Shown here piece by piece: positions 27,206-48,752 of a DNA stretch of 64,000 nt. The DNA is from Synergistaceae bacterium (GTDB lineage Bacteria; Synergistota; Synergistia; Synergistales; Aminobacteriaceae): assembly GCA_017445405.1 (NCBI GenBank), contig JAFSUD010000065.1, positions 28,404 through 92,403 of the forward strand, in the 5' to 3' direction. Numbering within the stretch: position 1 is the stretch's first letter; each line of letters begins with the position of its first letter. The translations under genes and the position numbers were made by a program. The notes under the pieces are model-generated. The model made no database searches. It saw only the letters and a program-made list of their open reading frames with translations, and was not told the origin of the DNA.

Positions 27206-27898
27206 ATGCCAATATTAGGGCCGTTCGATGTGGGATACCCAGTGGACTTTAGGAGCGGCGGAGATACGACAAGGGACGCATTCGGGAAGCATATCCAAGA
27301 GATAAAGAGGATATACGGCTGCCTTAACGCTTTGGACGCAGGGAAAGTAAGTGCAGAAGAGGTGGCAGGAGGAATAGGTAGCATAAGCAACGACCTCCTG
27401 AACCACATAAACAGTACGAACCCGCACCCGAACTGGAAGCCGAGCTGGTCAGACATAAGGAACAAGCCGAACCTTTCCGACTTGAGCGGTAATCTTGATG
27501 CATCAAGGATAACTGGGCTCACTAGCTTGATAGACGGGAAAATCCCAGAACCAAGCGGAGACGGAATAACGTCAGGCAGTTACGAAGAGAATGGGTACGT
27601 GAAGTTCAAAAGCGGGCTGATAGTAGAGTGGGGAAATCATTATGTAGACACGAAGTCAGATAACAAAGAATATGTAGTAGATTTTCCACTTAGTTTCCCC
27701 AATAGATGCCTAAATGTAACGTTGTCAACGCAGGTAGATAAGTTCTCAGGAGTAGCGGATGCGTGGGCTGAATTAATTAAAGAGGCAATATCGTCGACAT
27801 CATTCAAGTATTTTTTGCAGTACACAACAGAGGCCTATAACGGAATGAGCAACTTTACAGGCAATATAGGAGTTTCATACATAGCGATGGGAGTGTGA
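27206..27898 (+). CDS. Tail fibre protein with gp53-like C-terminal domain
   Basis: NGYVKFKSGLIVEWGNHYV...VDFPLSFPNRCLNV matches the common fibre-tip pattern (nG..k..nGli.qWG...v.FP..Fpn.c). Confidence 0.75.
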   Translation: MPILGPFDVGYPVDFRSGGDTTRDAFGKHIQEIKRIYGCLNALDAGKVSAEEVAGGIGSISNDLLNHINSTNPHPNWKPSWSDIRNKPNLSDLSGNLDASRITGLTSLIDGKIPEPSGDGITSGSYEENGYVKFKSGLIVEWGNHYVDTKSDNKEYVVDFPLSFPNRCLNVTLSTQVDKFSGVADAWAELIKEAISSTSFKYFLQYTTEAYNGMSNFTGNIGVSYIAMGV

Positions 27899-27902
27899 GG
27901 AA

Positions 27903-28322
27903 ATGCCGACATACAGGAACAACACAGACACAGCAATAAATTATTCGAGCAACGGGAAGCTGTACAGTTTTCCGCCGAAGACAGATTACCCGTGCAATTT
28001 TTGGGTGCCGTATCAGGAACTCGGGCTGAAGCTAGTGAACCCAGACTATCCGCCCGTACCGAACAGCATAATGCTGAGCGGGACGTTCAAGTTCGCGAAG
28101 GGAGTAGAGCGGAGGTTCAACTTCGAGCACTGCGGGAAGTACCGCGTGAAAGTGCGAGTGAAGAGCGGAGCTGTAAGGCTGTTCACGGGCAGTTCAAGGA
28201 CAGGCGCGGAGATAGATGGAGAATACGAGGCAGTATTCGACTGGGAGAAAGCACCGCATATCAGGGTAACAGGCATAGAGGGCGAGAATGAAATACGGAT
28301 AGACGCAGAGGCCGTAGACTGA
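27903..28322 (+). CDS. Hypothetical tail-module protein (139 aa)
   Basis: ORF track. Confidence 0.6.
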   Translation: MPTYRNNTDTAINYSSNGKLYSFPPKTDYPCNFWVPYQELGLKLVNPDYPPVPNSIMLSGTFKFAKGVERRFNFEHCGKYRVKVRVKSGAVRLFTGSSRTGAEIDGEYEAVFDWEKAPHIRVTGIEGENEIRIDAEAVD

Positions 28323-28702
28323 TGCCAACGCCGTACAGTGAACTAGTCGAAGAGTTCTTCATGCGTTACGAGTACCCGAGCGTGGAGGAACTGACAGTAG
28401 GCTTCAGCGACATCGACCCTCCGCTGAAGAATGACAACGCCACGATGAACCATGAGGAGCTGGAGAACCTGATGGGCGGGGACGAAGACGGGCATTACCA
28501 CTTGACGCGGGACTTGTGGCTCAAAGTGATAGAGCTGCTAAACAGGAAGGACTACGACGGCGGGTATGCGTCAACAAGAGAGACAGAGTACTTGGAGAAC
28601 GAAGACGAGTGGTTTGATGGAGGGTACGCCACGACAACAGACGAGGAGTACCTAGAGAGTGAAGACAACTGGCGGGACGGAGGCGAGGCGGACAATGATT
28701 GA
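28322..28702 (+). CDS. Short adaptor-motif protein (126 aa)
   Basis: LTVGFSDIDPP plus NHEELENLMGGDEDGHYHLT (motif family 1). Confidence 0.65.
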   Translation: MPTPYSELVEEFFMRYEYPSVEELTVGFSDIDPPLKNDNATMNHEELENLMGGDEDGHYHLTRDLWLKVIELLNRKDYDGGYASTRETEYLENEDEWFDGGYATTTDEEYLESEDNWRDGGEADND

Positions 28703-29650: not shown

Positions 29651-30379
29651 ATGGCGGATGTTATCTTTAAGGTGCGGGGGAAGACGGCGGAGGAGTGGGA
29701 GGCATTCCCCTTCGCCCCCGTAACCAACGAAATAACGTTAGACAAGACGAGCGGGCGCATCAAGATAGGGGACGGTGTGAGCGCGTGGAAAGACCTCCCG
29801 TTCGTGAAGCCGGAAGTTATAGATGACCTAACGACTGGCGGGAGCTATGACGCACTGAGTGCGGAACAGGGCAAGAGGCTGAAGCTGTTAGTGGACAAGA
29901 AGGCTGAGCAGACTGCGCTTAATACACTGGTGCAAACAGTCAATAACAACTACTCCACGCTCGATAATCGCATAACGAATGTTCAGAACAGCCTTACCAC
30001 ATTAATTAACAACAAACCCAGCACGACCGCCACAATCTCCATAGGAAAAGTAACGACACTTGCTGCGGGTAAAAGAGCGACAGTAACGAACAGCGGAACA
30101 GATACCAATGTAGTTCTTGACTTCGGCATCCCGCGCGGAGCAATGGGAGCAACTGGATCAACGGGTGATAGAGGACCGCAGGGAGTAAAGGGTGATAAAG
30201 GCGATAAAGGAGACAGCGTAACCGTCCTGAACAGCTGGAGCACCAGCACAACAGCGGCTTTGAGTGCGGCGAAAGGTAAGGAACTGAATGACAAGTTGTC
30301 AGCATATTCTACGGAGAACTGGACATTCACGCTGACTGGCGGAAGTACGGTAACAAAGAAAGTAGTGTTGAGTTCATGA
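29651..30379 (+). CDS. Tail fibre protein with Mtd-N-like N-terminus and collagen-like triplets
   Basis: FKVRGKTAEEW...IKIGDGVSAWKDLP. G-X-Y run GAMGATGSTGDRGPQGVKGDKGDKGDS. Confidence 0.8.
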   Translation: MADVIFKVRGKTAEEWEAFPFAPVTNEITLDKTSGRIKIGDGVSAWKDLPFVKPEVIDDLTTGGSYDALSAEQGKRLKLLVDKKAEQTALNTLVQTVNNNYSTLDNRITNVQNSLTTLINNKPSTTATISIGKVTTLAAGKRATVTNSGTDTNVVLDFGIPRGAMGATGSTGDRGPQGVKGDKGDKGDSVTVLNSWSTSTTAALSAAKGKELNDKLSAYSTENWTFTLTGGSTVTKKVVLSS

Positions 30380-31170
30380 CTGTAGCTTTTGCAAATGTTA
30401 CTGCTGTTAGGATACCGCAGGGAGAAGTTGTGAAGATAGCGGAGACTTCCGGCGGGCGTGTGCTTTGGCAGAAGCAAACTGCAGAAACAGGCTATCCGCG
30501 TTTCTTTATGCTCGCAGAAACTACTTTAGGCAAGTGGTCAACAGATTTCCGTAAGTATAATGCTCCGAGTTACACTTCGTATGACCCTCCGTCCGGCATC
30601 ATAAAGACACGGAGCTTAGGTATAAATTCGGTGCTCTTAACACCAACAGGAGCTATCCAGACAACTACAGTGCTATCAACGGGCAACAAATTTACAGCAT
30701 GTTATGTTACCGGCTCATCAGATGAAACAAATATCCCGACAACAGCCAGGAAGCTGACGGATGCAAGATGGGGAGTTACTAAACTTCGGTTAAGGGCATG
30801 TACTCAAGGACGAGCGTATGTCGGTCAGGGGCTTGATATGAGCAGCAGTGTTGGTATAGATTTGCCTACCAGCCAGACACCGATAAAATTCTCAGGGACG
30901 AGCGGGGCTTCAATAAGCATAACGAGCATAACAGCACCTGCTTCATATAGCAGTATATACGAAAGTTATTCAGGGGACAGCCGTTACGTGAACAAAACGA
31001 CAGCACCTTATTTGCTAGGAGAGTTCGTTTTGGGATATACCTCAGCAAGTTTAGAAACTCTTGCAGGTGGAATGTCCTCAACATATAGCGGTTACGCGAG
31101 CCAATCTATATTCTATGGTTTCCCAGACTACAGCCCAACTATAACATTTTTCTTCGTAATCCAGAGATAA
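30376..31170 (+). CDS. Hypothetical fibre-associated protein (264 aa)
   Basis: ORF track. ATGA overlap with the upstream gene. Visibly lower GC than its neighbours. Confidence 0.6.
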   Translation: MTVAFANVTAVRIPQGEVVKIAETSGGRVLWQKQTAETGYPRFFMLAETTLGKWSTDFRKYNAPSYTSYDPPSGIIKTRSLGINSVLLTPTGAIQTTTVLSTGNKFTACYVTGSSDETNIPTTARKLTDARWGVTKLRLRACTQGRAYVGQGLDMSSSVGIDLPTSQTPIKFSGTSGASISITSITAPASYSSIYESYSGDSRYVNKTTAPYLLGEFVLGYTSASLETLAGGMSSTYSGYASQSIFYGFPDYSPTITFFFVIQR

Positions 31171-31191: not shown

Positions 31192-31647
31192 ATGTACTAT
31201 GTAAATTACGATGAAGACACAGGAGAAATTTTAGGGATATACCCATCAAGCGAGAGCTACGATGATGTTCCTTATCCGAAGATAACCATAACAGACGAAG
31301 AATACGAGAGGCTCGGCAGCGGAGAATGGACAGTCAGAGATAACGCCCTCCAGCTTGTCTCCGAAGAGCCCACCCCAAGCGCAGGGAGCGTCGAGGTGCT
31401 GCAAACCGAGTATGCGGAGAAGTTCGCACGTTTGAGAAACTCCTATACTGGAGCAGAAATCATGGGAGACAGAACCAACACGGCGGACATTCAGAGGGAC
31501 TACAGACTGCTAATAGACGACTTCAAGGCAGCTTTAGCCGCACTAGATGACGGCCAGCCCTACGAGGGAGGAGCGCACGAACACTGCGAGATTTGCGGTG
31601 CAAGACTGAATGCTGGCGAATGCCTACGCTGCCACTGGAGGCTGTAA
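31192..31647 (+). CDS. Tail-fibre assembly/chaperone-like protein (151 aa)
   Basis: MYYVNYDEDTGEILGIY... N-terminus is typical of Tfa-like proteins. C-terminal CxxC...CxxC. Tentative. Confidence 0.5.
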   Translation: MYYVNYDEDTGEILGIYPSSESYDDVPYPKITITDEEYERLGSGEWTVRDNALQLVSEEPTPSAGSVEVLQTEYAEKFARLRNSYTGAEIMGDRTNTADIQRDYRLLIDDFKAALAALDDGQPYEGGAHEHCEICGARLNAGECLRCHWRL

Positions 31648-31959: not shown

Positions 31960-31971
31960 AGGAGCGATAAG

Positions 31972-32268
31972 ATGCCCAAGAATATAACGAGCGTAACATG
32001 GAGCGCAACAGGACTGCCGAGCGCGCTGACCATCAACAGTGCCACAGGAGTAATAAGCGGCACACCGAACGTCCAGCCTGGAGACTATACCGCTTCAGTA
32101 ACGGTAACGACGAATTACGGGACGGACACGAAGCCTGTAACAGTCAGAGTAGGTATACCTGCAGCTTGGTTGCCGCAGATTGACCCTAATCAGATAGTGA
32201 ACACCATAGCAGGCGATGTAATGACCCCCTACACCGTAACCGGCCAGAATGTAACGCTTGGAGGCTAG
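31972..32268 (+). CDS. He_PIG-like (putative Ig) domain protein (98 aa)
   Basis: WSATGLPSALTINSATGVISGTPNVQPGDYTASVTVTTNYG. Same frame as 31654-31959, separated by one TAG plus 4 sense codons. Confidence 0.65.
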   Translation: MPKNITSVTWSATGLPSALTINSATGVISGTPNVQPGDYTASVTVTTNYGTDTKPVTVRVGIPAAWLPQIDPNQIVNTIAGDVMTPYTVTGQNVTLGG

Positions 32269-32270: not shown

Positions 32271-33485
32271 ATGCCGACCAAGCAGATAACCAGCGTAGTA
32301 TGGAGCTGCGGAGCACTGCCCGCCGGTGTTAGCTTCAACACAGCGACGGGGACATTCAGCGGTACTCCAGAGGTTGAGGGCGAGTATATAGTGCCTGTAA
32401 CAGTAACGACCAACTACGGGACAGACATGAAGAATGTAACTCTGAGCGTAGCAGAGCCTGAGGTAGAGGAAGACGGAGAATACGGACCGGTGTACGCTAT
32501 AGGGACGAAAGCCAAAACATGGAGCGGGAATGCGGAGGCTGATGCTGACGGTTTCAGGAAGCTCAACATGCCTGACGCTTGCAGACTTGTGAAATTGTGT
32601 ACTGGTTTTGCGGCGAAAACAGACAGCCTCCAGTGGTACGTTTGCGGCACCACTATACATGGTTCTTCAAGCGCGCATCCTAAACCATATGGTGTTACTG
32701 GCCTTTCACCTTCTGTGCCTGTGCAATTTCCAGTTGAAGATGTTGTTGATATGTCATCAGGTTGGTATCGCGTTACAAGTTCAGTTTCCGGCTCTTACTA
32801 CTTTGCTTATCTCACTTCAGACCACGTATCTCATGTAGTTCTGCTAATGACCGCAAATTCTGCTATTACTAGTGTCGGTAATATAAAGAAATTGAGTAGC
32901 GGGTATGGTGCTGGTGTAATGACAATCGACAACACTGGAGCAACACGCTATGAGAATGCAACAGTGCGTGGGCAGCTAGCAGTGGGTGTATCACCTTCTC
33001 AGGTAAAAAAACTCTTAGCTACTGGTATGTACTCTAAACCTCGAATGCCTACATACATTACAACGTCCGGCTATCTTTATAAAGGGGCAGAACGCGTGGA
33101 TTTTGGCGGTGGGAAGATAAGAAACATTTGGGGATACCCGCATGGTGAAAAACAGCATCTGTTCGCTGTTACCGAAGATAATCAGCTCTATGCGATGGGA
33201 GAAAACACGTATCACAGTCTCGGACTTGATGGAACAGAAACAAGGACAGAGCTTGAATTAGTCGGAGAATGGGACGTTAAGACTATAGCTCAGGGAAGTA
33301 CAATGGACACGTTTTTGCTTACTAACGACGGTAAACTGTACCATTCAGGTGCGGCTATGTCAGTATACGACATATCGAAAATTGTTAGTACGCATGAGAG
33401 TTTTACACACATATACCCAGACAAAAGATTTATTGATATAGCAATGTATTCCAGCACTACATTAGTAGCTATACTGAAGGAGTGA
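32271..33485 (+). CDS. He_PIG-like domain + propeller-like C-terminal domain protein (404 aa)
   Basis: WSCGALPAGVSFNTATGTFSGTPEVEGEYIVPVTVTTNYG. The C-terminus has RCC1-like strings (NQLYAMGENTYHSLG, DGKLYHSGA). The C-terminal part has lower GC. Confidence 0.7.
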   Translation: MPTKQITSVVWSCGALPAGVSFNTATGTFSGTPEVEGEYIVPVTVTTNYGTDMKNVTLSVAEPEVEEDGEYGPVYAIGTKAKTWSGNAEADADGFRKLNMPDACRLVKLCTGFAAKTDSLQWYVCGTTIHGSSSAHPKPYGVTGLSPSVPVQFPVEDVVDMSSGWYRVTSSVSGSYYFAYLTSDHVSHVVLLMTANSAITSVGNIKKLSSGYGAGVMTIDNTGATRYENATVRGQLAVGVSPSQVKKLLATGMYSKPRMPTYITTSGYLYKGAERVDFGGGKIRNIWGYPHGEKQHLFAVTEDNQLYAMGENTYHSLGLDGTETRTELELVGEWDVKTIAQGSTMDTFLLTNDGKLYHSGAAMSVYDISKIVSTHESFTHIYPDKRFIDIAMYSSTTLVAILKE

Positions 33486-33489: not shown

Positions 33490-33831
33490 ATGAGATACTT
33501 AGAATATGAGACAGCGACAGGACGGATAATCAGCGAGCTGACCAGCAGGGACAAACCCACCCCTTCCGAAGGGTTCTCTCTGCTTGAGATACCTGAAGAC
33601 GCAGATATAGACACCACGCTGTACGCGGTGAAGAACGGAGTACTGGTGAAGTGCTACGAAACAAACGAGGAGCGTCTGGAGCGAGAGAGGCTGAAGCGCG
33701 AGCATCTGGAGAAAGTGCGAATGAGGATGAAGGCGATGATGTACGAGGTGGGAATAGCACTCCTTGAAGAGGACGACAATGCAATAAAGCAACTCAGACA
33801 GGAATACCGAGAACTGAAGGCGTATCTGTGA
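33490..33831 (+). CDS. Tail-fibre assembly/chaperone-like protein (113 aa)
   Basis: MRYLEYETATGRIISEL... resembles the 31192 gene N-terminus. Tentative. Confidence 0.5.
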   Translation: MRYLEYETATGRIISELTSRDKPTPSEGFSLLEIPEDADIDTTLYAVKNGVLVKCYETNEERLERERLKREHLEKVRMRMKAMMYEVGIALLEEDDNAIKQLRQEYRELKAYL

Positions 33832-35920: not shown

Positions 35921-36271
35921 ATGGCAAATGAATGCAAGACTGTCAAGATAAACCTGAAGACAGCCCCACACGAGAGGCTTGGCGGACTTCTCGGCGGGGA
36001 TGATGGAGGGCACTACCACCTCTCGGAGGAGGAGTACGGGCTAGTATCGGAGCTGGTTGAGGAACGTCGGCTAGAGAACGAAGCGGGCGGATGTTTTCAT
36101 AAACTCCAAGATGATGAACACGACAAGCTGTTAAAGCTGCTTGATATATTCTTCCCTGACGAAGAGGCAGATATAGCAGACACCTTCGCGACGCTGATGG
36201 ATGCGCGTATAGCGGCCTACATCAAGACGATAGACAGCGGAGAGATAACAGCTCCGAACGCAGGAGGCTAG
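35921..36271 (+). CDS. Short adaptor-motif protein (116 aa)
   Basis: PHERLGGLLGGDDGGHYHLSEEEY. Paralogue of the 37712 gene (shared GGCFHKL...LLDIFFPDE). Confidence 0.65.
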   Translation: MANECKTVKINLKTAPHERLGGLLGGDDGGHYHLSEEEYGLVSELVEERRLENEAGGCFHKLQDDEHDKLLKLLDIFFPDEEADIADTFATLMDARIAAYIKTIDSGEITAPNAGG

Positions 36272-37711: not shown

Positions 37712-38167
37712 ATGGCAGAAGAATACAGTGCGGTAACGATAAACATAAAGACAGCTCCACATGAAGAGCTTGACGGGCTTCAGGGAGGAGACGACGACGG
37801 GCACTATCACCTGACAGAGGAAGAGTATTCGCTGATGTCGTCTGTGCTCGGTGAACGCCGTGAAGAAGATGAAAGCGGCGGATGTTTCCACAAGCTGGAG
37901 GACGAACAGTACGAGAAACTGCTTGAGCTGCTTGATGTGTTTTTCCCTGACGAAAATTCAATGGCAGAGGACACGCTGGCAGAGCTAATAGATGAGCGAG
38001 CGGGCACAGAAGACCATGAACAGCTCACCCATCTTTTGGGCGGGGAAGATACGGGACATTACCACGTAACAGCGGCTCAGTACCAGATACTCCAAAACTT
38101 AGATGAGTACATCGCAGAACGGGTAGCAGCTGTTCTTAGGGAAATGTCGGTTGATGTTCACCCATAA
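37712..38167 (+). CDS. Short double adaptor-motif protein (151 aa)
   Basis: Start moved to MAEEYSAV. PHEELDGLQGGDDDGHYHLT and DHEQLTHLLGGEDTGHYHVT. Confidence 0.65.
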   Translation: MAEEYSAVTINIKTAPHEELDGLQGGDDDGHYHLTEEEYSLMSSVLGERREEDESGGCFHKLEDEQYEKLLELLDVFFPDENSMAEDTLAELIDERAGTEDHEQLTHLLGGEDTGHYHVTAAQYQILQNLDEYIAERVAAVLREMSVDVHP

Positions 38168-38182: not shown

Positions 38183-38647
38183 ATGAGCTTCAGAGACAGC
38201 TTCGGGAATGAGTACTTAGACACTTGTATTCCCGATAAGATAGTTGGCTTCACAGGAATAGACCCCAGTCTCATACCAAACATCGACACCGAAGATATTG
38301 TCGGTGGTGAAGATGAGCACCCAGTTGCATGGCATGACAGCCTTGAAGAAATCTTAGGCGGGGATGATGACGGATGCTACCATTTGACGCATGACGAGTA
38401 CGAAAAATTAGTACTGCTCCTGAATGAACGCTATGGAGAGAATGATGATGACGAGGGAGATGCACCAGAAGACAATAACCGAACTCTGACAGCAGAAGAG
38501 TATGCTATGCTATCAAGGCTGTTGAGTGAAGTTTACGGCGAAGAAGGCGACGACCCAGTCTTTCCCCTCAACTTGGCCGATGAAGAGCTAACGGAGCTGA
38601 TTGATAATAGGATAGCTGAGTATCTCAGCAGCACAGGAGTCCACTGA
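38183..38647 (+). CDS. Short adaptor-motif protein (154 aa)
   Basis: MSFRDSFGNEYLDTCIPDKIVGFTGIDPS and WHDSLEEILGGDDDGCYHLT. Acidic. Confidence 0.65.
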   Translation: MSFRDSFGNEYLDTCIPDKIVGFTGIDPSLIPNIDTEDIVGGEDEHPVAWHDSLEEILGGDDDGCYHLTHDEYEKLVLLLNERYGENDDDEGDAPEDNNRTLTAEEYAMLSRLLSEVYGEEGDDPVFPLNLADEELTELIDNRIAEYLSSTGVH

Positions 38648-41168
38648 TGCCGTATATAACTAGTGATTATCCTGAAATGATGAGCTACGAAGGCGGAGCG
38701 GCAATGCTCTGCAGCGGAATGGGGTTCGGCGAAAGATGCGCTTATTTGCCTGACAGCTCCAGCCGCATCAAGATAACCAACTCCACCGGCATGTTTAATC
38801 TGTCTCCGTCAAAAGCCTGCGAGTTTGAAGTCTTCATCAAGCCGACAGACCGTACAGCCCAATACACAGAGCAGGGTTACAGCTTCTACGACGGGCACAC
38901 GTTCAAATGCTTCACCACACTCATGACGTGGGCAGAGGCAAAGGCGGCCTGTGAGGAGATAGGCGGACATTTAGCCACAAGCACTAACTCGGCGAAGAAT
39001 GCCTTTCTGGCCAGCCTAACCAATGCTAATGCGTGGCTTGGAGCGACAGATGAAGAAAGCGAGGGTACGTGGAAATGGATTACGGGCGAAGATTGGAGCT
39101 ACACCAATTGGAACGTCGGCCAGCCTGACAATGCAGGACAGAATGAACACTACCTGAACATCAATTTCGGTTCGGCGGGAAAATGGAATGACTGGACACC
39201 AACTAAAACTCTGCACTTCATTTGCGAATGGGATTACGATTTCAGGGACAACAGCAGCATCATCAGGCTCGGAGATTTAGTGCTTGCTTTGACTGCCGAG
39301 AACCACCTCAAGCTGAGCTCTTCTACATGGAGCATAGAGAAAAACATACAGCAGGATTTAGCGGCTCAGGGGTATAAATTCTATGACGGGCACTCCTTCA
39401 AGTTCTTCAACGACAAAGTCTCGTGGACAACAGCAAAGGCAGCCTGCGAGGCTCTAGGGGGACATCTTGCTACCAGCACCAGCGCAGAGAAAAATTCGTT
39501 CTTAACCGCTATCACGACTGAGTACTCATGGCTCGGAGCAACAGACGAGGCACAGGAAGGCGTTTGGCAGTGGGTTACAGGCGAGGACTGGAACTATAAC
39601 AACTGGAACAGTAACGAGCCTAACAATAGCGGCGGTGCTGAGCACTATTTGCAGCTCAACTATGGAAGGGTAGGAGGCTGGAACGATTACTCCAACTATC
39701 AGCAACTCGGCTATATCTGTGAATGGGACGAAGATTTCAACAAGTGCTTAAAGCCTGAGCAGTGGTATCGCATCATTCTCAGAGTAAGTGATGAGTGTGT
39801 AACAGTAATTCTCGACGGTGTTGAAGTAATCAGGGAGAACATTACGGGTTCAGAGGAGATAAAGCCTGAGTGTCTAGAGTTAGGCGGGTTCAGCGGTTAC
39901 ATGGATGGTTTCTCGTATAGGAGGAGTAGCGATTCAGGAGGTTTTGAAGTGTATCATGAAGAGTTAATCGGCATATTGGGCGGTGATAATAACGGGCACT
40001 ATCACTTCACTAGCGAAGAATGGGCAAAAATGAGGAAGCTGATAGCAGCAGCTTATCCAGATGGAGCAGAAGACCCTGTAATAGGCGGAGGGAATGTTTC
40101 TAACCCAGACTTACCAGACGACACGATGATAGATTACGGTCCGGCTGGTATGTTGCCTAGTAGTCAGCCGCCTGCGTGGGGTATTGCCGCTCTGCCCAAG
40201 AAATACAGTCTGTGGGGTAACCCTAGCAAAATGTATTACGGGTGTATCGACAAGAAAGGGTATTTCACTAATGAAGTCCTTGTCGTCCCCATGAGGTACG
40301 GGAACTCCACCAAAAGTCAGGATCTCATGTTCACTAATGACTTGCAGACCTGGACTAGACATCGCTCGCTGAGGACAAGTACTTATGGGACGGGTTTCAC
40401 TGAATATGCCTATGCCTCGATGGATAATAAGTGCAGTCTCTATACCGTCGGCCTCCAGAGTAATAAAAAGCAGATATACTATCATTACACCTTCACAGCG
40501 AGCAAAGGAGGAGGTATCTCCAGTTTCGCAACGAAGATTGCGGGGTTTTCTGATACGCAGTCTTTCATCGCCTGTGCTCATTCGCCGGAGATTAACCTTA
40601 CTATCTTTGTTGCTGATAACGGCGCAGTGATTCGCAGAAGAGCAGGTTTATGGCAACGAAAAGAAGGCATACACATAGGTATGAATGTCAATCCCGGCTG
40701 TGCAGCTTGGGACAGCTACCACAAGATATTCTGTGTAACTGGAGCAAACGCCTCAGCAGTTAGTTCGAACGGAGTGGACTGGACTGTATCGGAAAATGCA
40801 CCTCAGCTTCTCTATGGGCTCGAGTACAGAGATGATTTGAAGGTATTTATAGCTTGGAGCTTGGAGGACAGACTTTTCTACGTCTCTGCGGACGGTATCA
40901 ACTGGACGAGGTACAGTCAGACAGCTATACCGCTTGCTAATGCCAGTGCAGTAGCTTATTGTCCTGACTTCGGGTGGTATTGTGCAATAGGCAGCAGAAG
41001 CCAGTACGCATACTTCAGCAAAAACCTCAAGACTGGACAGGCACGAAAGTCAGTAATGCAGACTTGAATATGTCCGACGTAATCTGGATGCCGAGCACCA
41101 AGAAATTCGTATTAACAACACAGGGCGGAGAAAGCCTTTATGTCTTTGACCCTGCAGATTGGCAGTGA
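38647..41168 (+). pseudogene. Receptor-binding protein with two C-type lectin domains (QPD, EPN), LamG-like domain and BNR propeller, frameshifted near the 3' end
   Basis: CTLD signatures around QPD (39121-39129) and EPN (39616-39624). Frame 1 stops at 41067, but the -1 frame from the A5 run (41020-41024) encodes the conserved paralogue C-terminus ...DWTGTKVSNADLNMSDVIWMPSTKKFVLTTQGGESLYVFDPADWQ*. Confidence 0.8.
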
Positions 41169-41178: not shown

Positions 41179-41466
41179 ATGAGCTTTAGAGACAACTTCG
41201 GGAACGAGTATTTAGACACCTACATACCAGATAAGATAGTGGGTTTCATAGGCATAGACCCCGATATGAAGAACGGCGGAGGGGGCGGAAGCGGAACGGA
41301 TGACCACGAACAGCTGACGAACCTTCTCGGAGGAGATGCTACGGGACATTGGCACGTAAATGCAGAGCAGTATCACTGTCTCTTAGACATAATGAGCGGA
41401 AGGCTGAACAGCATAATAGATGCCCGGGTGGCGAAGTACATAACCGACAACAACATAGGCGGCTAA
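41179..41466 (+). CDS. Short adaptor-motif protein (95 aa)
   Basis: MSFRDNFGNEYLDTYIPDKIVGFIGIDPDMKNGGGGGSG and DHEQLTNLLGGDATGHWHV. The 5' DNA is closely similar to that of 36274. Confidence 0.65.
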   Translation: MSFRDNFGNEYLDTYIPDKIVGFIGIDPDMKNGGGGGSGTDDHEQLTNLLGGDATGHWHVNAEQYHCLLDIMSGRLNSIIDARVAKYITDNNIGG

Positions 41467-41532: not shown

Positions 41533-41859
41533 ATGGCAACATTCAATGAAGGCGTAATGTCAATCAGCGGCCCCATCCAGCATAAGAGAGGAACTAGCGC
41601 GGCTCTTGCTGCTTCGGGCTACGTACCTGCGGCGGGAGAAATTATCATCGCAACAGATACGGGCGAAATACGTTCAGGCGATGGAGTAAACACTTGGAGC
41701 AACCTCCCCAGCTATGATGGGACGGAAATCGCGAACAACCTCACGACAGCTACGGCCGGAAAGGCACTTGATGCTTCGCAGGGCAAGGCACTCAACGACA
41801 GGGTAGGAACTCTCGAGAACATCACAGGCATTGACTGCGGCGTAATCACAGCTGACTAA
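41533..41859 (+). CDS. Mtd-N-like N-terminal module only (108 aa)
   Basis: IQHKRGTSAALAASGYVPAAGEIIIATDTGEIRSGDGVNTWSNLP...GKALDASQGKALNDR...IDCG. Followed by a terminator. Confidence 0.7.
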   Translation: MATFNEGVMSISGPIQHKRGTSAALAASGYVPAAGEIIIATDTGEIRSGDGVNTWSNLPSYDGTEIANNLTTATAGKALDASQGKALNDRVGTLENITGIDCGVITAD

Positions 41860-41884
41860 CCAGAACATCGCAAGAACTTAACAG

Positions 41885-41940: not shown

Positions 41941-42618
41941 ATGGCGATAAATGAAGGTATTATGCAGTTCACAAGGGCTATTCAGTACAAGCGCGGCATC
42001 AGCTCAGACCTTGAGGATTTGCTCTACATCCCAACTGAGGGTGAAATCATCATAGCTACAGACACAGGGGATATTCGGGCTGGAGACGGAGTTCATATGT
42101 GGAAAGACCTTCCCAGCTACGACGGAACAGAGATTGCAAACAACCTCAACACTGCAACTGCAGGGAAAGCTCTCGACGCATCTCAGGGCAAGCTGCTGAA
42201 TGACAGGGTAGAAGTGCTTGAAGCTGTCGGCGGCATCGACTGCGGAGCTCTTGTCAGGGCACGGAGCAACATCACATGCACGCAGAACTACGACGGAAGC
42301 GCATCCCAGACCGCTAACTTCAATGCAGGCTTCGGCTTCGGGCACATCAGCAAGACCTATCTCAGCTATGAGCAGATACTCTCTGACCTCGAACTCAACG
42401 CTTCATCAGAGGCTGCAGCAGTAACCCAGAAGTTCACGGCCGCATTCTCTCTCACCAACGGCACAAACACCTATACCTATGGCACAGACTTCAACATCAT
42501 TCAGGGGAGCGATACTGACAGCACCACAAACGAACATACTGTGCAGGTTCAGTGGATTAGCGGCGGAGAACATCCTGCGGGAGACTACGACATTATTTAC
42601 AGCGGACGGGCAGCATAA
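41941..42618 (+). CDS. Fibre/receptor-binding protein with Mtd-N-like N-terminus (225 aa)
   Basis: IQYKRGISSDLEDLLYIPTEGEIIIATDTGDIRAGDGVHMWKDLP. The C-terminal domain is paralogous to that of 42634. Confidence 0.75.
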   Translation: MAINEGIMQFTRAIQYKRGISSDLEDLLYIPTEGEIIIATDTGDIRAGDGVHMWKDLPSYDGTEIANNLNTATAGKALDASQGKLLNDRVEVLEAVGGIDCGALVRARSNITCTQNYDGSASQTANFNAGFGFGHISKTYLSYEQILSDLELNASSEAAAVTQKFTAAFSLTNGTNTYTYGTDFNIIQGSDTDSTTNEHTVQVQWISGGEHPAGDYDIIYSGRAA

Positions 42619-42633
42619 TTGAGGTGATTAGAC

Positions 42634-43338
42634 ATGGCAGACTTTAACAGAAACGTAATGACAATAACCGGGCCTATTCAGCACAGGCGCGGCACGAGTG
42701 CGGCACTGGAAGCGAGCACATACATCCCTGCGGCGGGAGAAATCGTTATCGCCACCGACACAGGAGAGATACGCTCCGGCGACGGCATCAACACATGGAG
42801 CAATCTTCCGAGCTACGACGGAACAGAACTTGCAGATAACCTCACGACGGCAGACACCGGCAAAGCCTTAGACGCTACTCAGGGTAAAATCCTCAACGAC
42901 AGGATTAACGATGTAGCGGGCAGAGTTGAGATTGTGGAGGACTTCGACAGCATTGACTGCGGAGAAATAGCACCGGCAAACGGAGACATCAGATGCACGC
43001 TCCATTATGAGGACGGAGACAGTCAGGAGCTCGTGTTCAATGCGGGGCTGGGCTTCGGGCACATCGGAGGTATCTCGCTCAGCTACGAGCAGGTACTTGA
43101 TGACTTGGGGCTCACAGCTTCATCGGACGCAGAGACTGTTGCTCAGAAGTTTGCGGAAGCCTTCAGTCTCAGCGACGGAACGGACCCCTACGCTTACGGG
43201 GAGGACTTCAGCATTGTTCAGGGCACGGCAGTTGATGCAAGCTCCAATGAGCACAGCATACTTCTCGTCTGGCAGGAAGACGTTGCGCCTTCTGAAGGAG
43301 AGCTCTACGCAGTCTATAGCGGACGCAGCAACGGATAG
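42634..43338 (+). CDS. Fibre/receptor-binding protein with Mtd-N-like N-terminus (234 aa)
   Basis: IQHRRGTSAALEASTYIPAAGEIVIATDTGEIRSGDGINTWSNLP. Shares FNAGLGFGHI...LSYEQ with 41941. Confidence 0.75.
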   Translation: MADFNRNVMTITGPIQHRRGTSAALEASTYIPAAGEIVIATDTGEIRSGDGINTWSNLPSYDGTELADNLTTADTGKALDATQGKILNDRINDVAGRVEIVEDFDSIDCGEIAPANGDIRCTLHYEDGDSQELVFNAGLGFGHIGGISLSYEQVLDDLGLTASSDAETVAQKFAEAFSLSDGTDPYAYGEDFSIVQGTAVDASSNEHSILLVWQEDVAPSEGELYAVYSGRSNG

Positions 43339-43354
43339 GGCATAGGCAGGCACG

Positions 43355-44650
43355 ATGGCAGACATCAACGAAGGCGTGATATTCTTCGATCATGCTCTCC
43401 AGAACAGACGGGGCACAAGTGCTGACCTGGCTCTATGCGAGTACGTGCCTGCACCTGGCGAGCTGGTGATTGCTACAGATACCGGCGAGATACGCTACGG
43501 GGACGGAGTGAATGTTTGGGCGAACCTGAAGACGTGCGACAACACAAAGATTACGAACAACTTGGAGACCTCCGACACAGGCGAGGCACTTGATGCGGCG
43601 CAGGGTAAAGTGCTGAACGATAGGCTGAGGATGCTTGAGGGATTGAGGGGAATAGACTGCGGGGAGATTACGCTGTTCATACGCATTGACCAAGATGATA
43701 CTGAACCTGTTACCGATTTCTACTACTACAAGTACGCGTCCCTGACCTTTACAGCGACATACGTTGCCCCGCCGGAACTGGAAGGCTCGTATCCAGTCTG
43801 GAACGTAGAAGGACTGCCCGAAGGCCTGACAGCCGCGAGCTCGAACGGTGTGCTGACTATCTCGGGGTATGCTCAGGAGCAGGGAATGAAGGATGTTGCT
43901 ATCACAGCTAGCTTCGGGACGTGCTCAGACACTAAGGTGTACAGCTTCGAAGTGCAAGGCGGCCCGAGCATAGAAATTTCGAACTCTGGCTTAGGGGATT
44001 GGAATATAGGTAGCAGCAAATCAGTTACGCTCACTTCATCCGTAATAGGGGATATATCGGGGACGACAACGTATTATGCTGAAGACAGGCCGTCGTGGAT
44101 GTCTCTGAACTCTTCGACTGGTGTGCTGTCAGGCAGCCCTTCGGGAAGTGCAGGCACGTACTCTGTTTCTGCTTATGTTACGAAAGGAGATTACAGAAGT
44201 CCGGCTAAATCTCTGAGCTATAGGGTTATCAATTTGACACCAAGATGGGCACGCTCCAGTATTACTCTTGACATTACAGCTCTTAGCAGAAATTCAAAGA
44301 GCATTAGTTCCGAATCAGTTAGTTTGATGAATTTTATTGCCTCATCTGATAAGAGTTTAAATTTCTCAATAGATGATGAGTCGGTTCATCTATCATCAGG
44401 AACATCGTTTTTGGCTATTTCCCTATCATGTTCATACAACTTAACCCAAACCCGTCCTTTCTGTTCGCTCATAATAGGGAGAAAAGGAAAGAATACTCAA
44501 TCAAAGAGCTATTCAGGAAGCACGACCATCGTGATGAGTAATGCTTATGGTTCAAGCAGTATGCACATATTCTTAAAAATAGCCGATAAAGCCACTTACA
44601 CGAATAATTCATCAGGGAAATATGCCAGTACAGCCCCAATAGTAACGTAG
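43355..44650 (+). CDS. Fibre/receptor-binding protein: Mtd-N-like N-terminus + He_PIG-like repeats (431 aa)
   Basis: LQNRRGTSADLALCEYVPAPGELVIATDTGEIRYGDGVNVWANL, then WNVEGLPEGLTAASSNGVLTISGY. The C-terminal ~150 codons are AT-rich. Confidence 0.75.
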   Translation: MADINEGVIFFDHALQNRRGTSADLALCEYVPAPGELVIATDTGEIRYGDGVNVWANLKTCDNTKITNNLETSDTGEALDAAQGKVLNDRLRMLEGLRGIDCGEITLFIRIDQDDTEPVTDFYYYKYASLTFTATYVAPPELEGSYPVWNVEGLPEGLTAASSNGVLTISGYAQEQGMKDVAITASFGTCSDTKVYSFEVQGGPSIEISNSGLGDWNIGSSKSVTLTSSVIGDISGTTTYYAEDRPSWMSLNSSTGVLSGSPSGSAGTYSVSAYVTKGDYRSPAKSLSYRVINLTPRWARSSITLDITALSRNSKSISSESVSLMNFIASSDKSLNFSIDDESVHLSSGTSFLAISLSCSYNLTQTRPFCSLIIGRKGKNTQSKSYSGSTTIVMSNAYGSSSMHIFLKIADKATYTNNSSGKYASTAPIVT

Positions 44651-44663: not shown

Positions 44664-44918
44664 ATGCAGGTAGAACATATACAGTTATTGCGCGGAACAT
44701 CAGATGCACTCGCCAGCACAAACCCGACGCTTCTAGCCGGAGAGCTCGGTTTCGAGACAGACACGGGAAAGTTCAAGTTCGGAGACGGAGTTACGGCATG
44801 GAGGGAGCTGAAGTACGCGGCGGCAAAAGCAGACGGCCTCACGCAGGAGACGTGGAGGGTTGTTCTCGATGACGGATTGGACACCGAGATACAGAAAAAG
44901 GTAGCAATATGGAGTTAG
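44664..44918 (+). CDS. Mtd-N-like module protein (84 aa)
   Basis: IQLLRGTSDALASTNPTLLAGELGFETDTGKFKFGDGVTAWRELKY. Confidence 0.65.
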   Translation: MQVEHIQLLRGTSDALASTNPTLLAGELGFETDTGKFKFGDGVTAWRELKYAAAKADGLTQETWRVVLDDGLDTEIQKKVAIWS

Positions 44919-45937
44919 AAGACGTTAAGCAGGTATTCATGCCCGAAGGCGAGGCAAGGAAGATACTTGAGGGGGAAACGGTGCTGTGGGAGAAGCTGGA
45001 AGGCATACTGATAACCGACTTCAAGCACTACAGGTACGCCTCGTACGCAATCCTAGCACCAGCCGGAGTACCTGAAGATGTTACCCCAGTCTGGGAGGTA
45101 TCGGAGCTTCCCGCAGGGCTGTCATACAAAACAGCTCCAAAGGGGATTACTATCAGCGGCTACGCGGAACGTGTCGGCAGAAAGCGAGTAACAGTCAGGG
45201 TAACTCTCGGAGAACAGACAGAAGAAACGCTGTACACATTTGCGATAACCAGCGATGGGAACGAGATAGCCATTGCAAGCCCTGATTTGGGTGTCTGGTA
45301 CAATGCTGAGAGCGGCGCAAAGAGCGGCACTACAGCTTTGTCTTTATCTGGCAGTGGAGCTAGCGGAAGTTCGGTAACATACTACAGCACAGGTAAACCG
45401 TTATGGATGGGTATCAACAGCAGCTCAGGGGCACTCTCTGGTACGCCGAACATAGGCTACGAGGCTCAGAGCGGGTGGGTTACTGTCTACGCAATCAGGG
45501 GCGGAGTAAATGCGGAAGGAAGCTATAAAACGCCACGCAAGGTTCTGCAGTGGAGAACAACCAACTCAGTACCGCACTTCAGGTACACGAATATAAGACT
45601 TGACTGCACTACTGCCTTGAGAGCGAGCGGTAATAATAAAACTACATTCTTCAGCCTAGACTTATCTCAGTACTATTATCCCATAGAAGGCGGAGCGAAC
45701 GGAATAACCTACACGATAGACAGTGCGCAGGGCAAGCACGTAACGCCGTATATCTCAGGGAATACCTTGCACCTGCAGAAGAAGAGCAAATGCACGACAA
45801 CAAGCGGCTGTGATTCGTACATCACTATCGTAGCCAGAAACTCTAGCGGCGCGAGCGGAACACTGTACATTCATTGCGACGTACACGCCAAAAAAGCTGC
45901 GTGCTCAACCACCACAGTTGTAGAAGCAGTCAGTTAA
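44909..45937 (+). CDS. He_PIG-like repeat protein, paralogue of the 43355 C-terminal part (342 aa)
   Basis: WEVSELPAGLSYKTAPKGITISGYAERVG and YYSTGKPLWMGINSSSGALSGTPN parallel the 43355 protein. Confidence 0.7.
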   Translation: MELEDVKQVFMPEGEARKILEGETVLWEKLEGILITDFKHYRYASYAILAPAGVPEDVTPVWEVSELPAGLSYKTAPKGITISGYAERVGRKRVTVRVTLGEQTEETLYTFAITSDGNEIAIASPDLGVWYNAESGAKSGTTALSLSGSGASGSSVTYYSTGKPLWMGINSSSGALSGTPNIGYEAQSGWVTVYAIRGGVNAEGSYKTPRKVLQWRTTNSVPHFRYTNIRLDCTTALRASGNNKTTFFSLDLSQYYYPIEGGANGITYTIDSAQGKHVTPYISGNTLHLQKKSKCTTTSGCDSYITIVARNSSGASGTLYIHCDVHAKKAACSTTTVVEAVS

Positions 45938-46296: not shown

Positions 46297-47891
46297 GTTT
46301 CAGGAACTTCGGGCACATTAAGAGCCTTCTGCACTTCGACTACCCGTATTTTAATGAGCCAGGCGACGGACTGGGAGACGAGGTAGGACTAGAGACATGG
46401 AGCAGAGAAAATTCTAACGTTAAGCTGTACGGCTCGGCAATCCCTAACGAGGGCACGCAAGCTCCTAAATTCGGGTACAGGTGTGCATACTTCGGGGCGG
46501 GGGCAGTTCTAGGCACAAACACCAGCGGGATGTGGAACTTGAACTCCAGCGGAAAGCACGAGATAGAGTTTTTCTTGTACCTTAAAGCTACAGGCACACC
46601 GCAATACCTGTTCAGGCTAATGGACGGTGATACGGCAGTCCTGACGCTGAGTATCGACGACAGCGCATACATTGGATTAACGTGCAGTGCATGGAATGTC
46701 AGCATGACGGGCACAATTGCTGTTGCGACTGACGGCTGGCGGCATGTATTGCTGAGGATTTCGGGTAGCAAGGCTGCGCTTTACCTTGACGGCGAAGAGT
46801 ACGCATCACAGACATTGACTGAAGATGTAACACTGTCAGTCTCTCAGGCAAGGATAGGCTACGCCGAAAGCGGAAGTTTCTGCATAGACGAATTTGCGTT
46901 TAGAGACTACGCTAGGACAGGCGCACCTACAATTCCGACAGAACCGTACAGTGGGAAGCTGGACATCTCCAAAATAGGTGGCTACGGCACTGGAGCGCAG
47001 GGAGACGTAACCATCAGTGCAAACACACAGATAAATAGTTACGGGAAGGTAAACACTGTAACAGACAACCACAAATTCAAAGTATCATCGTGGAGCAACG
47101 GTTCATATATAGCCAGTGCAGGGAGTGAAGTAATGCTCCAGAATGTGTATAACGGGCTGTACTGCTTCGCGAAGGTAAAGAGCATCGCCGGTACTACCGT
47201 AACACTGGAGCAGGATATTTCTACGGAGAACGGTTATCCCTTTAACCTCAACACACAGCTTCAGGTAATCACTGTACCGAACTATAAGAGCCTGATGGTG
47301 AACGCGGGATGCTACGTGATGCCTCTGACATATGATTCAAGCAAGGGCGGCGGCATCGTAGCTTTCAGGTGTAAGGGAGACTGTACAATCAACGGCGCAA
47401 TCCTTACACACGGGGCTGGTAAGGAACGTTCAGACACAATCCAGATGACACACGGACAGCTGGTAGACCATTTTCTGCTGACTAGTGGCGGCAATACATT
47501 TATCACCTGTGGAGGGACATTCACAGCTCCCAGCACGGCGCGTCTCGGCGCATCATGGGGCGGGAACGGAGGAAGCGGCAACGGTGCGGCAGGCTATGGC
47601 GGAAATGGCGGAAGCACACAACAGGCTTCTGGAGGTAATGGCGGTGTAGGAGGCGGTGGAGGCGGTGCTCCAAGCGGCAATGGCGGTAATGGCGCAAAAT
47701 TAAACAACTCTTTAGCAGGTGGAATTGCCGGTGCGAACGTCCTCCTTGTGTGCGATACCTTGAAGCTCGATAAAGAGGCTCTATCCACCGGCGGACAGAC
47801 GGGAGAGAGTGATATAAATACAACACGTATAGGAGCGGCAGGCGGCGGCGGTACAGGCTTCGCGTACATAGCCTGCAGAAAGAGGGGGTAA
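46293..47891 (+). CDS. LamG/ConA-like domain protein with beta-rich middle and glycine-rich C-terminal tract (532 aa)
   Basis: DGWRHVLLRISGSKAALYLDGEEY...CIDEFAFRDYA is LamG-like. GGNGGSGNGAAGYGGNGGS...GGVGGGGGGAPSGNGGNG at about 47556-47700. Confidence 0.75.
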   Translation: MSFRNFGHIKSLLHFDYPYFNEPGDGLGDEVGLETWSRENSNVKLYGSAIPNEGTQAPKFGYRCAYFGAGAVLGTNTSGMWNLNSSGKHEIEFFLYLKATGTPQYLFRLMDGDTAVLTLSIDDSAYIGLTCSAWNVSMTGTIAVATDGWRHVLLRISGSKAALYLDGEEYASQTLTEDVTLSVSQARIGYAESGSFCIDEFAFRDYARTGAPTIPTEPYSGKLDISKIGGYGTGAQGDVTISANTQINSYGKVNTVTDNHKFKVSSWSNGSYIASAGSEVMLQNVYNGLYCFAKVKSIAGTTVTLEQDISTENGYPFNLNTQLQVITVPNYKSLMVNAGCYVMPLTYDSSKGGGIVAFRCKGDCTINGAILTHGAGKERSDTIQMTHGQLVDHFLLTSGGNTFITCGGTFTAPSTARLGASWGGNGGSGNGAAGYGGNGGSTQQASGGNGGVGGGGGGAPSGNGGNGAKLNNSLAGGIAGANVLLVCDTLKLDKEALSTGGQTGESDINTTRIGAAGGGGTGFAYIACRKRG

Positions 47892-47897
47892 AGCAAG

Positions 47898-48752
47898 ATG
47901 GCAAATATCACAACAGCTAACAGAATAGCTTACGAGCTAGACAGCATAGCATCAGCTCCCGCAGACGTAGACGGCCTCTCAGTACTCCAGCATTTCGACT
48001 ACCCTGAAAGCCTGAGCTGGAACGGCAACTCTTCATTCTTGGATAGTGGCGCGAAGTTCGGCAAGGGATGCGCGTACTTCCCTGACACAGAGAGCAACAT
48101 CACTATCACCAACAAGACGAGAATGTTCACCCTCTCGCCGTTAGGGAACTATGAAGCAGAATGCTTCATCAAACTTGACAGCGTAACAGCGGAGGGAGGA
48201 GAAGACGCGCCACACGGCAACATCCTAGATTTCGGCGGTGAGCTTATCCTCAGTCATTCAGGCACAATCCTTATGCTAACTTCCAGTACATGGGACATCG
48301 ACAAAACCTCACAGGCTACCATCACAGCCGAAGAGTGGCATCACATCCTTCTGCGAATTACGGGAGAGGAAGTGTACGTCTACCTTGACGGGGCAGAAGC
48401 TCTCCGTGCGCCAATCTACGGCAATTTAGAGGACATTACTCCAGAAGTCATGACGCTCGGCGGTTACGTCGGATACATGGATGAGTTTGCTTTCCGGCGC
48501 AACGCTGGCACAGGTGCTCCCGCAGTACCTGAATACCCCTATGAGACGAACGTGGTAACGAAGCAGGTAGTCAGGAGCGCGCCCGTAACACGTGCATCAT
48601 GGAGCTGTGCTAACCTCCCCGAAGGCCTGACGCTCTCAAGCTCGGGACAGCTCACGGGGCATCCCACGACGGCGGGAACTTACGACTGCGATGTAACAGT
48701 AGCCACGAACTGGGGCACGGACACAAAGACGATAAAGATAGTGGTTCAGTGA
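47898..48752 (+). CDS. LamG-like + He_PIG-like domain protein (284 aa)
   Basis: EEWHHILLRITGEEVYVYLDGAEAL...GYMDEFAFRRNA, then WSCANLPEGLTLSSSGQLTGHPTTAGTYDCDVTVATNWG. Confidence 0.75.
   Translation: MANITTANRIAYELDSIASAPADVDGLSVLQHFDYPESLSWNGNSSFLDSGAKFGKGCAYFPDTESNITITNKTRMFTLSPLGNYEAECFIKLDSVTAEGGEDAPHGNILDFGGELILSHSGTILMLTSSTWDIDKTSQATITAEEWHHILLRITGEEVYVYLDGAEALRAPIYGNLEDITPEVMTLGGYVGYMDEFAFRRNAGTGAPAVPEYPYETNVVTKQVVRSAPVTRASWSCANLPEGLTLSSSGQLTGHPTTAGTYDCDVTVATNWGTDTKTIKIVVQ

Follow-up and report, generated by a model that had tools for sequence, protein, structure and literature searches.

Positions 27206-48752 of the 64,000-nucleotide (nt) window analysed here, that is, of the whole stretch of DNA under study, are probably a supermodule for receptor binding carried by a short-tailed, SU10-like phage, in which differing heads would be mounted on a few reusable proximal parts, a repeat termed F1b would serve as shaft, and many fibres would be built from several polypeptides. 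The array is 21.5 kb long and contains, by our count, 28 co-oriented open reading frames (ORFs), including a conserved ORF of 49 amino acids (aa) at 28695-28844; their stops and starts overlap or nearly abut, and a Shine-Dalgarno sequence precedes most of them. An initial annotation of this DNA had described about 30 plus-strand fibre ORFs: the co-oriented run stands, with the lower count. Its central claim, that shared N-terminal modules lie ahead of differing distal domains in a very large region for receptor binding, was supported, and the giant array follows a known modular strategy on an unusually large scale. ORFs are labelled below by their start coordinate; 33831 is the same gene as the Pfam-scanned ORF 33828, from which its residues are counted.

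Recurrent modules and distal heads

Two motif families recur in the array, and both were searched for in the region and in 200 shuffled versions of it, which gave no match for any motif. Family 1 had been described as a two-part motif occurring 11 times in nine genes. Its HxH half, here called F1b, was indeed found 11 times in these same nine genes by a six-frame search with the expression H[ED]xLxx[LI]xGG[DEN]xxG[HC][YW]H[LFV], always on the plus strand (positions 28451, 31765, 34512, 34656, 35969, 36400, 37760, 38015, 38333, 39955 and 41305). The other half, F1a, (V/T/I)(V/I)GFx(G/D)IDP, occurs only six times, at 28394, 31714, 33888, 36331, 38240 and 41236. F1a, with the consensus x(F/Y)xxxYxxPxxxxLx-VGF(S)GIDP, always begins 20-27 residues from the initiator methionine, in the six window genes and in every relative examined; judged by sequence, this stretch of about 30 residues, present in six genes, is truly an N-terminal leader.

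By contrast, the description of family 1 as an 11-copy N-terminal adaptor does not hold, as four of the 11 F1b copies are not N-terminal. Three lie well within large proteins (33831, at residues 228 and 276, and 38647, at residue 437), and the fourth, at residue 102 of ORF 37712 (151 aa), is the second copy in that small protein. The F1b unit covers about 35 residues, the HxH motif and the helix following it (consensus HExLxxLxGGDxxGHYHLTxxE, then helix), with H6, L9, G14, G15, G19 and H22 invariant and G-H-(Y/W)-H nearly so. Searched against 1.84 billion cluster representatives, an F1b profile matched 398 proteins at E <= 1e-3, ranging from 67 to 3132 residues and carrying 1-11 copies, many with 2-11 in tandem. 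P0121, for instance, is composed of F1a, eight F1b repeats and a propeller, while P0125 has four F1b repeats and then a C-terminal part resembling 27206. Several of these proteins are giant and fibre-like, every one that was looked up is an unnamed protein from a metagenome, and a Pfam scan of seven of them yielded only NosD-type beta-helix and YadA_stalk. Because it occurs in some 400 clusters with up to 11 tandem copies per protein, F1b reads as a generic, uncurated fibre-shaft repeat of variable copy number and no adaptor. By analogy with T4 gp37, in which an HxH pair coordinates iron (PMC11705849), and with the SU10 short fibre, whose HxH pairs have been proposed to bind Fe2+ (PMC9509320), the HxH pair of F1b is likely to bind a metal ion and so clamp the trimer. 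The distinction between a true leader and a widespread, uncurated shaft repeat matters in its own right, and F1b merits a family definition and a solved structure.

Family 2 fared better: Pfam Mtd_N (PF18454) matches all eight genes named in the initial annotation, six of which also contain the Mtd_N-like string by regular expression. Six matches exceed the gathering threshold of 26.3 bits (30.1-43.4 bits, at the N-terminus), and the two that do not, in 29651 (21.8 bits) and 41941 (18.9 bits), both align with their paralogues. Phage_fiber_rpt follows most of the copies. Three subtypes can be told apart: 28849 with 29651; 41533, 41941, 42634 and 43355, which have the N-terminal ~105 residues in common at 54-70% identity; and 44664 with 45949, which are 55% identical. 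In a PDB sequence search, 41533 aligned weakly with the N-termini of the HylP hyaluronidases of streptococcal prophages; Mtd_N is known as an N-terminal module of proteins at fibre tips, and in phage BPP-1, Mtd trimers occupy the tail-fibre ends (PMC2408619). This headless Mtd_N and fibre-repeat module is the most conserved gene of the array, being 85-86% identical in the relatives L003 and L018, versus ~59-62% for the neighbouring 515-aa protein (25655), with a ratio of nonsynonymous to synonymous substitution rates (dN/dS) of 0.09. A strong terminator-like hairpin (41883-41914, 12-bp stem, T-rich tail) follows 41533, and a similar one follows its L003 homologue; the hairpin may split the array into two expression units.

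Roughly a dozen heads are present: a gp53-like tip, an RCC1-like propeller, three beta-propeller proteins (two with C-type lectins), and He_PIG, LamG and Gly-rich heads. The C-type lectin profile (PF00059) scored above its 22.6-bit threshold in 33831 (one copy, 66.8 bits) and 38647 (two copies, 121.6 bits). He_PIG (PF05345) passed its 24-bit threshold in 31972, 32271, 43355, 44909 and 47898, with the profile only partly covered (from 34 or 46 to 95) in 31972, 32271 and 47898. Laminin_G_3 was found in 46293 and 47898, RCC1-like repeats in 32271, and the Gly-rich tract of 46293 is seen in the translation. Most of the distal domains listed in the initial annotation were thus recovered, by Pfam for the gp53-like tip, a weak collagen tract, Lectin_C, LamG and He_PIG; its BNR propellers were not, as BNR (Asp-box) repeats gave no Pfam match and the best Foldseek matches were of WD40 type. 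An AlphaFold2 model of 36274 from a 14-sequence alignment (predicted local distance difference test, pLDDT, 76) has a confident beta-propeller at residues 110-477, which Foldseek matched to WD40-type propellers (E 5e-10) and to phage propeller proteins. One viral Foldseek match is named 'BNR repeat domain protein', and SxDGxxW-like strings are visible in the sequence; we class the proteins plainly as beta-propellers. A PDB sequence search with the propeller alignment gave nothing meaningful.

In 38647, two eukaryote-type C-type lectins are inserted into a LamG jelly-roll; its two halves (residues 7-72 and 360-431) correspond to the LamG of 47898, which is uninterrupted. This gene also shows an apparent 1-nt deletion at or near an A5 run ('AGCAAAAACCTCAAG', 41017-41030) that cuts off the last ~45 residues of the propeller. 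These would be regained by a -1 shift, and the frame continues to 41166, judging from the paralogues and from a 747-aa homologue that is intact in L018. Two contigs retrieved separately have the same site, which could be a genuine mutation, a site of slippage or an error common to both.

Comparison with relatives shows that the N-terminal modules are better conserved than the parts downstream of them. Protein 27206 aligns with its L001 counterpart only over residues 1-143, and the 16-kb array of L018 keeps the same order with different heads. In the target protein of a diversity-generating retroelement (DGR) in L018, the first 54 residues are 69% identical to 45949, and everything downstream is replaced. 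Because these two proteins match at the N-terminus and differ beyond it, they provide direct evidence, at the level of sequence comparison, for exchange of heads behind a constant N-terminal module, as expected of an attachment module. The L018 DGR (L018:18219-21272; ENA ERZ27256812 k141_1637937) is complete and stands at the end of the fibre array. Its variable repeat (VR, 19087-19180) lies in the last codons of a 323-aa Mtd_N protein and differs from the template repeat (TR, 19803-19896) at 23 positions, of which 20 are adenines in the TR; the element is completed by an Avd-like ORF of 179 aa and by a reverse transcriptase (RVT_1, 30.9 bits). The syntenic site of the window holds the Mtd_N stub 45949 and then LamG proteins. 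The reverse transcriptase and Avd-like protein of L018 gave no tblastn match in the 64-kb window, and no repeat pair in the window (64 kb of the ~108-kb genome) has more than 39% adenine-biased mismatches. The clade shows two routes to receptor diversity side by side, head swapping behind constant anchors and, in one relative, a DGR. A switchable host range, which the initial annotation had also expected, found no footing in the region: long inverted repeats and an invertase are lacking, all genes lie on one strand, and paralogues share only 60-85% DNA identity. Switching by an invertase or shufflon was rejected on the absence of long inverted repeats.

The same heads could be taken to do something other than bind host receptors: many of the lectin, Ig-like or LamG proteins might instead fasten the virion to glycans of the rumen, such as those of plant polysaccharide, mucus or biofilm matrix, or might be assembly chaperones. 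The domains Lectin_C, He_PIG and LamG, all of eukaryote type, are present, a resemblance at the level of domains only, and 31192 and 33490 are chaperone-like by position. The heads, however, share N-terminal fibre modules and shaft repeats with clear fibres, they are encoded in the fibre operon between tail genes and lysis or ejection genes, and they are swapped between relatives, as is typical of receptor-binding proteins. We consider this explanation unlikely.

Small proteins and split fibres

The small ORFs made only of a motif, to which the initial annotation had drawn attention, are real genes. At least six other genomes (L001, L002, L003, L006, L018 and L019), whose 515-aa neighbour is ~59-72% identical to that of the window, keep this gene order and encode the small ORFs as cistrons of their own. 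Each small ORF has its own Shine-Dalgarno sequence and ATG, and their dN/dS, at unsaturated synonymous sites, is 0.09-0.26, compared with 0.145 for the 515-aa protein; they are under purifying selection. It could be argued that they are relics of cassette replacement, products of recoding or frameshifting, or assembly artefacts, in line with the stop codons that interrupt He_PIG domains and with the frameshift in 38647. Against this stand the dN/dS values and individual start signals just given, together with a He_PIG split that is kept in seven genomes with varying stops, gaps and frames (see below). Stop-codon recoding was rejected, as stop use is balanced and no (suppressor) tRNA is present, and so was an assembly artefact, as paralogues share 60-85% DNA identity and two separately retrieved contigs, from ENA and Logan, are 100% identical to the window. 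This alternative is highly improbable and largely refuted.

What these proteins do is suggested by fibres that exist in both fused and split form. Residues 119-401 of the fused 43355 are homologous to residues 35-316 of 44909 (E 3.5e-33), which is encoded separately, downstream of the 84-residue Mtd_N stub 44664. Likewise, 33831 combines F1a, lectin, F1b and propeller in one chain, where 38183 (F1a and F1b) and 38647 (LamG/lectins, F1b and propeller) divide them between two. The split pairs 29651/30376 and 44664/44909 carry additional terminal motifs, 'W.f.L..G....KKV' at the upstream C-terminus and 'P.GE..KI.....VLW.K' at the downstream N-terminus; these hairpin-joint motifs are absent from the fused version and kept in L002 and L018. 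Because of the fused and split homologue pairs and of the extra terminal motifs in the split versions, the small ORFs most likely encode proximal pieces of fibres that comprise two or three polypeptides each.

A second type of joint is indicated in the series 31654, 31972 and 32271. Protein 31654 ends with '...ITVTADEPMTPYTITGENTTLS*' and 31972 begins with 'MPKNITSVTWSATGLP...'; 31972 itself ends with a tail homologous to that of 31654 (55% identical), and 32271 begins like 31972. When 31654 and 31972 were artificially joined, the He_PIG match extended to profile positions 2-95 and its score rose from 53.0 to 56.3 bits, and two other Ig-like profiles extended likewise across the join. At the second junction (31972/32271), coverage grows and the score does not rise. 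Seven genomes keep the three-cistron arrangement and split a He_PIG domain at the same point; the stop codons differ, the gaps measure 1-32 nt and every relative frame occurs, and because stops, gaps and frames vary in this way, a shared read-through or frameshift signal is excluded. The likeliest explanation, which we hold with modest confidence, is an Ig fold complemented across chains, in which the ~25 C-terminal residues of one protein would provide strands A-B and the next protein the rest. AlphaFold2 on an artificial 31654-31972-32271 fusion, run with no alignment, gave a pLDDT of 48 and left the joint segments unstructured.

Docking on a short tail and the surrounding genome

The window matches part of a 107,967-nt metagenome contig (ENA) and the Logan contig at 100% identity, and relatives yield circularly permuted contigs of ~111.8 kb. 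From these matches the genome size is about 108 kb, of which the array takes up ~20%. PHROGs identified a large terminase (14440), a portal (15906), a major head protein (23389) and a 1021-aa lytic internal virion protein (52674), and recognised no tape-measure gene between head and fibre genes. The Pfam profiles SU10_portal and SU10_MCP match relatives whose capsid protein is 77-79% identical to that of the window, and SU10_adaptor matches 24605 in the window itself at 27.0 bits, exactly at the cut-off of 27; a nozzle was not identified when the virion module was tested with SU10-type profiles. The major capsid protein of the window is ~35% identical to those of podophages, among them phiM5, HTVC106P and the Pseudomonas podophage TL. 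A megablast search with 24 kb found no nucleotide-level match in the cultured-phage collection. The 515-aa protein 25655 has more than 190 homologues at 54-71% identity; an IMG/VR scan with it retrieved no relative. All ten matches in a genome collection (species representatives) are in metagenome-assembled genomes (MAGs) of Synergistaceae, Fretibacterium or Synergistales, with goat or deer named in the titles of eight of the ten records. We conclude that the window belongs to an SU10-like podophage whose host is probably a rumen member of the Synergistaceae.

On such a phage, the modules could be put together as follows. The F1a leader would act as one docking module, and Mtd_N with Phage_fiber_rpt as another, which may bind as a trimer either onto the tail (24605 or 25655) or onto another fibre; F1b would stiffen the shaft. 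A small motif-only protein would form the proximal part and the next gene would supply the head, the two being held by conserved non-covalent joints. The heads would bind glycans or proteins of the Synergistaceae surface, and their simultaneous display might lead to multivalent or broad adsorption. Small F1a genes adjoin Mtd_N genes, 28322 preceding 28849 and 29651, and 41179 preceding 41533 and later genes; the same order is found in L001, L002, L018 and L019. Gene order, which is the only argument here, suggests a two-tier docking arrangement. A more specific and rather doubtful proposal, which we put forward tentatively, is that the fibres are assembled like a construction kit, through the split He_PIG joint (31654 to 31972 to 32271), the hairpin joint and two-tier docking, with F1a stalks on the tail and Mtd_N proteins on the stalks. 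If true, heads could be plugged in combinatorially without gene fusion. In any case, the fused and split pairs and the He_PIG joint give testable rules of fibre connection, useful for engineering phage host range.

Several points weigh against the supermodule as proposed, the first of which is the number of docks. On the SU10 plan of 6 + 6 docks, at least 15 different trimers could not all bind in full number unless by branching or competition. The branching of the G7C, CBA120 or K64-1 type invoked in the initial annotation was not corroborated, since no T4 gp10-like branching domain was detected by Pfam in 27 ORFs or by PHROGs in 10 array ORFs, a result that leaves room for a remote structural likeness. 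F1b has no counterpart in Pfam (window ORFs), PHROGs or the PDB, and its profile matches no solved structure. Nor did cultured phages offer much: tblastn with the F1b-rich P0121 and P0170 found no match among them, the 48-residue F1b consensus found only four weak ones, and a word-indexed protein search with a 43-residue F1b alignment returned nothing at E <= 1e-3. F1b is therefore almost without cultured-phage counterpart, and its role is read from context alone. Residues 1-108 of 36274, which comprise F1a, F1b and the Pro-rich linker, have a pLDDT below 50 in the monomer model; this is compatible with an oligomeric or interface-dependent segment and proves nothing. Finally, 38647 is frameshifted in this genome, and the host assignment, being based on MAG binning only, is a lead and no proof.

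Because of the 6 + 6 docks and of the undetected gp10-like domain, mosaic virions are a serious alternative, although on balance we lean against them. Proteins with the same module would then compete for few docks, so that each particle carries a random subset of heads; this form of bet-hedging would let the population cover many host surface types, and the headless 41533 would be a competitor that sets occupancy. Four genes with one N-terminal module (54-70% identity) and six with F1a agree with such competition, as do the SU10 architecture, which has only six adaptor and six nozzle docks (PMC9509320), and the strongly conserved headless stub with its terminator-like hairpin. The small F1a proteins that adjoin Mtd_N genes in several genomes, however, fit two-tier branching equally well. 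Neither the branched nor the mosaic model accounts for the headless stub and the hairpin. We retain the supermodule with reusable proximal parts as the preferred reading.

The individual genes are listed in Table 1. Outside the families named there, 25655 had no Pfam or PDB sequence match, a PDB sequence search with 24605 gave nothing meaningful, and 30376 and 31192 matched no family in Pfam or PHROGs. In L003, a more distant relative, the SU10-type adaptor gene homologous to 24605 is duplicated in tandem (L003:8132-9347). Around the array, the window also contains an IS605/TnpB-like transposase between the portal and capsid genes (19965-21221), and L001 has a resolvase and OrfB_IS605 pair within its fibre array (L001:16000-17773). 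A MazE-like antitoxin and PIN-domain toxin pair (48793-49474) lies directly after the fibre array; next come genes for an M15 peptidase (49737-50165) and for a holin-like protein (50165-50647), after which structural genes resume. A 495-aa protein with a Hint module (50661-52148) is encoded just ahead of the ejection-protein genes. The early region encodes a Fic/DOC-domain protein (9184-10434); in L001 and L002, Fic genes are located between the portal and capsid genes.

Table 1 Genes of the array and of the tail region directly upstream, with the basis of each assignment.
Position	Strand	Feature	Basis
24605..25168	+	SU10-type head-to-tail adaptor; would offer long-fibre docks by analogy with SU10	Pfam SU10_adaptor
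25655..27202	+	Conserved tail protein of 515 aa, adjoining the array on its upstream side; nozzle or hub candidate	Position only
27206..27898	+	Fibre, conserved N-terminus and gp53-like C-terminal tip	Pfam Gp53-like_C 46.3 bits
27903..28322	+	Conserved 139-aa protein, role unassigned	62-66% identical in L001, L002; dN/dS 0.17
28322..28702	+	Small F1a+F1b protein, acidic repeat tail; candidate proximal stalk	dN/dS 0.11 vs L002
28695..28844	+	49-aa ORF (MIERGIADRFCICWWDG...)	ATG overlaps 28322 stop; closely similar 49-50-aa ORFs in L001, L002, L018
28849..29643	+	Mtd_N and three Phage_fiber_rpt repeats	Pfam 41.7 and 76.5 bits
29651..30379	+	Mtd_N (sub-cut-off), fibre repeats, short weak collagen tract; C-terminal 'W.f.L..G....KKV' joint	Pfam, translation
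30376..31170	+	Distal all-beta head; N-terminal 'P.GE..KI.....VLW.K' joint	N-terminus conserved in L002, L018 counterparts
31192..31647	+	151-aa protein, C-terminal Cys4 ribbon; possible fibre-assembly chaperone	39% identical in L001
31654..31959	+	Small F1a+F1b protein; last ~25 residues match He_PIG strands A-B	Tail 55% identical to 31972 tail
31972..32268	+	98-aa link protein: He_PIG profile 34-95, then second A-B tail	Pfam 49.8 bits; has its own cistron in 7 genomes
32271..33485	+	Partial He_PIG (profile 46-95), then RCC1-like propeller head	Pfam
33490..33831	+	Conserved 113-aa helical protein; possible chaperone	54-60% identical in L001-L003
33831..35906	+	F1a leader, C-type lectin, two F1b, Pro-rich linker, beta-propeller	Lectin_C 66.8 bits; paralogue of 36274, 38647
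35921..36271	+	Small F1b-only helical protein	62% identical to 37712; L018 homologue
36274..37707	+	F1a leader, F1b, Pro-rich linker, seven-blade-type beta-propeller	AlphaFold2 and Foldseek
37712..38167	+	Small protein, two F1b repeats	Motif search
38183..38647	+	Small F1a+F1b protein; detached N-terminal part of next gene, relative to fused 33831	Motifs, paralogue alignment
38647..41166	+	LamG interrupted by two C-type lectins, F1b, propeller	Lectin_C 121.6 bits over two stretches; LamG halves match 47898
41179..41466	+	Small F1a+F1b protein	71% identical to 36274 N-terminus
41533..41859	+	Headless Mtd_N and fibre-repeat module	Pfam; conservation
41941..44650	+	Three genes (41941, 42634, 43355): 41533-type N-terminal 105 residues, differing heads	Pfam, alignment
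44664..45937	+	Two-polypeptide fibre: 84-aa Mtd_N stub (44664-44918) and 342-aa He_PIG head (44909-45937)	Pair kept in L018
45949..48752	+	115-aa Mtd_N stub (45949), LamG/Gly-rich (46293-47891), LamG/He_PIG (47898-48752)	Pfam

Comparison with known receptor-binding systems

Anchors and conserved docking peptides are known from Klebsiella phage and coliphage systems (PMC6872550, PMC13352976). In KP32, KP34, K1-5/SP6, G7C, CBA120 and PhiK64-1, the last of which has 11 receptor-binding proteins, the genes of these proteins are likewise adjacent and combine short conserved N-termini with exchangeable heads (PMC6872550, PMC13352976, PMC11414711); there, as in the array, standard parts are re-used to widen host recognition. 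The array differs in its parts. No T4 gp10-like domain and no T7-type anchor was detected in it, its conserved modules are F1a and Mtd_N, and its heads are of lectin, Ig-like, LamG and propeller type, that is, non-enzymatic, whereas those systems carry depolymerase beta-helices. It also differs in the number of fibres split into two or three polypeptides and in occupying ~20% of a podophage genome.

With BPP-1 Mtd, Mtd_N (PF18454) and HylP, the array has the N-terminal Mtd_N module in common, and its relative L018 has a DGR acting on an Mtd_N protein. Unlike BPP-1, however, it combines eight Mtd_N genes in one genome, most of them lacking a DGR-type lectin head and three reduced to stubs of 84-115 residues, in a window without reverse transcriptase or TR/VR. 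The Kuravirus SU10 has the same types of portal, major capsid protein and adaptor. Its long fibre consists of proximal and distal trimers from separate genes, and its adaptor provides six fibre docks (PMC9509320). SU10 displays two fibre types, compared with at least a dozen heads in the array and its genome of ~108 kb, and the 515-aa protein has no sequence match to the SU10 nozzle. As for the shaft, HxH metal-binding motifs are known from the trimeric fibres of T4 (gp37), R-type pyocins and the Alteromonas phage R22Y (PMC11705849, PMC6116203), and F1b resembles them in its G-H-(Y/W)-H within a repeated fibre segment; it is distinguished from these by its longer unit of ~35 residues, its own consensus and the lack of a PDB or Pfam counterpart, and its metal binding is putative.

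In conclusion, the array operates like the known systems of anchors, conserved peptides and branching, and differs from them in the identity of its modules, in its non-enzymatic heads, in the extent of splitting and in size. A clade of uncultivated rumen phages devotes 16-21 kb to receptor binding, and its arrays are among the largest multi-head ones described for a short-tailed phage.

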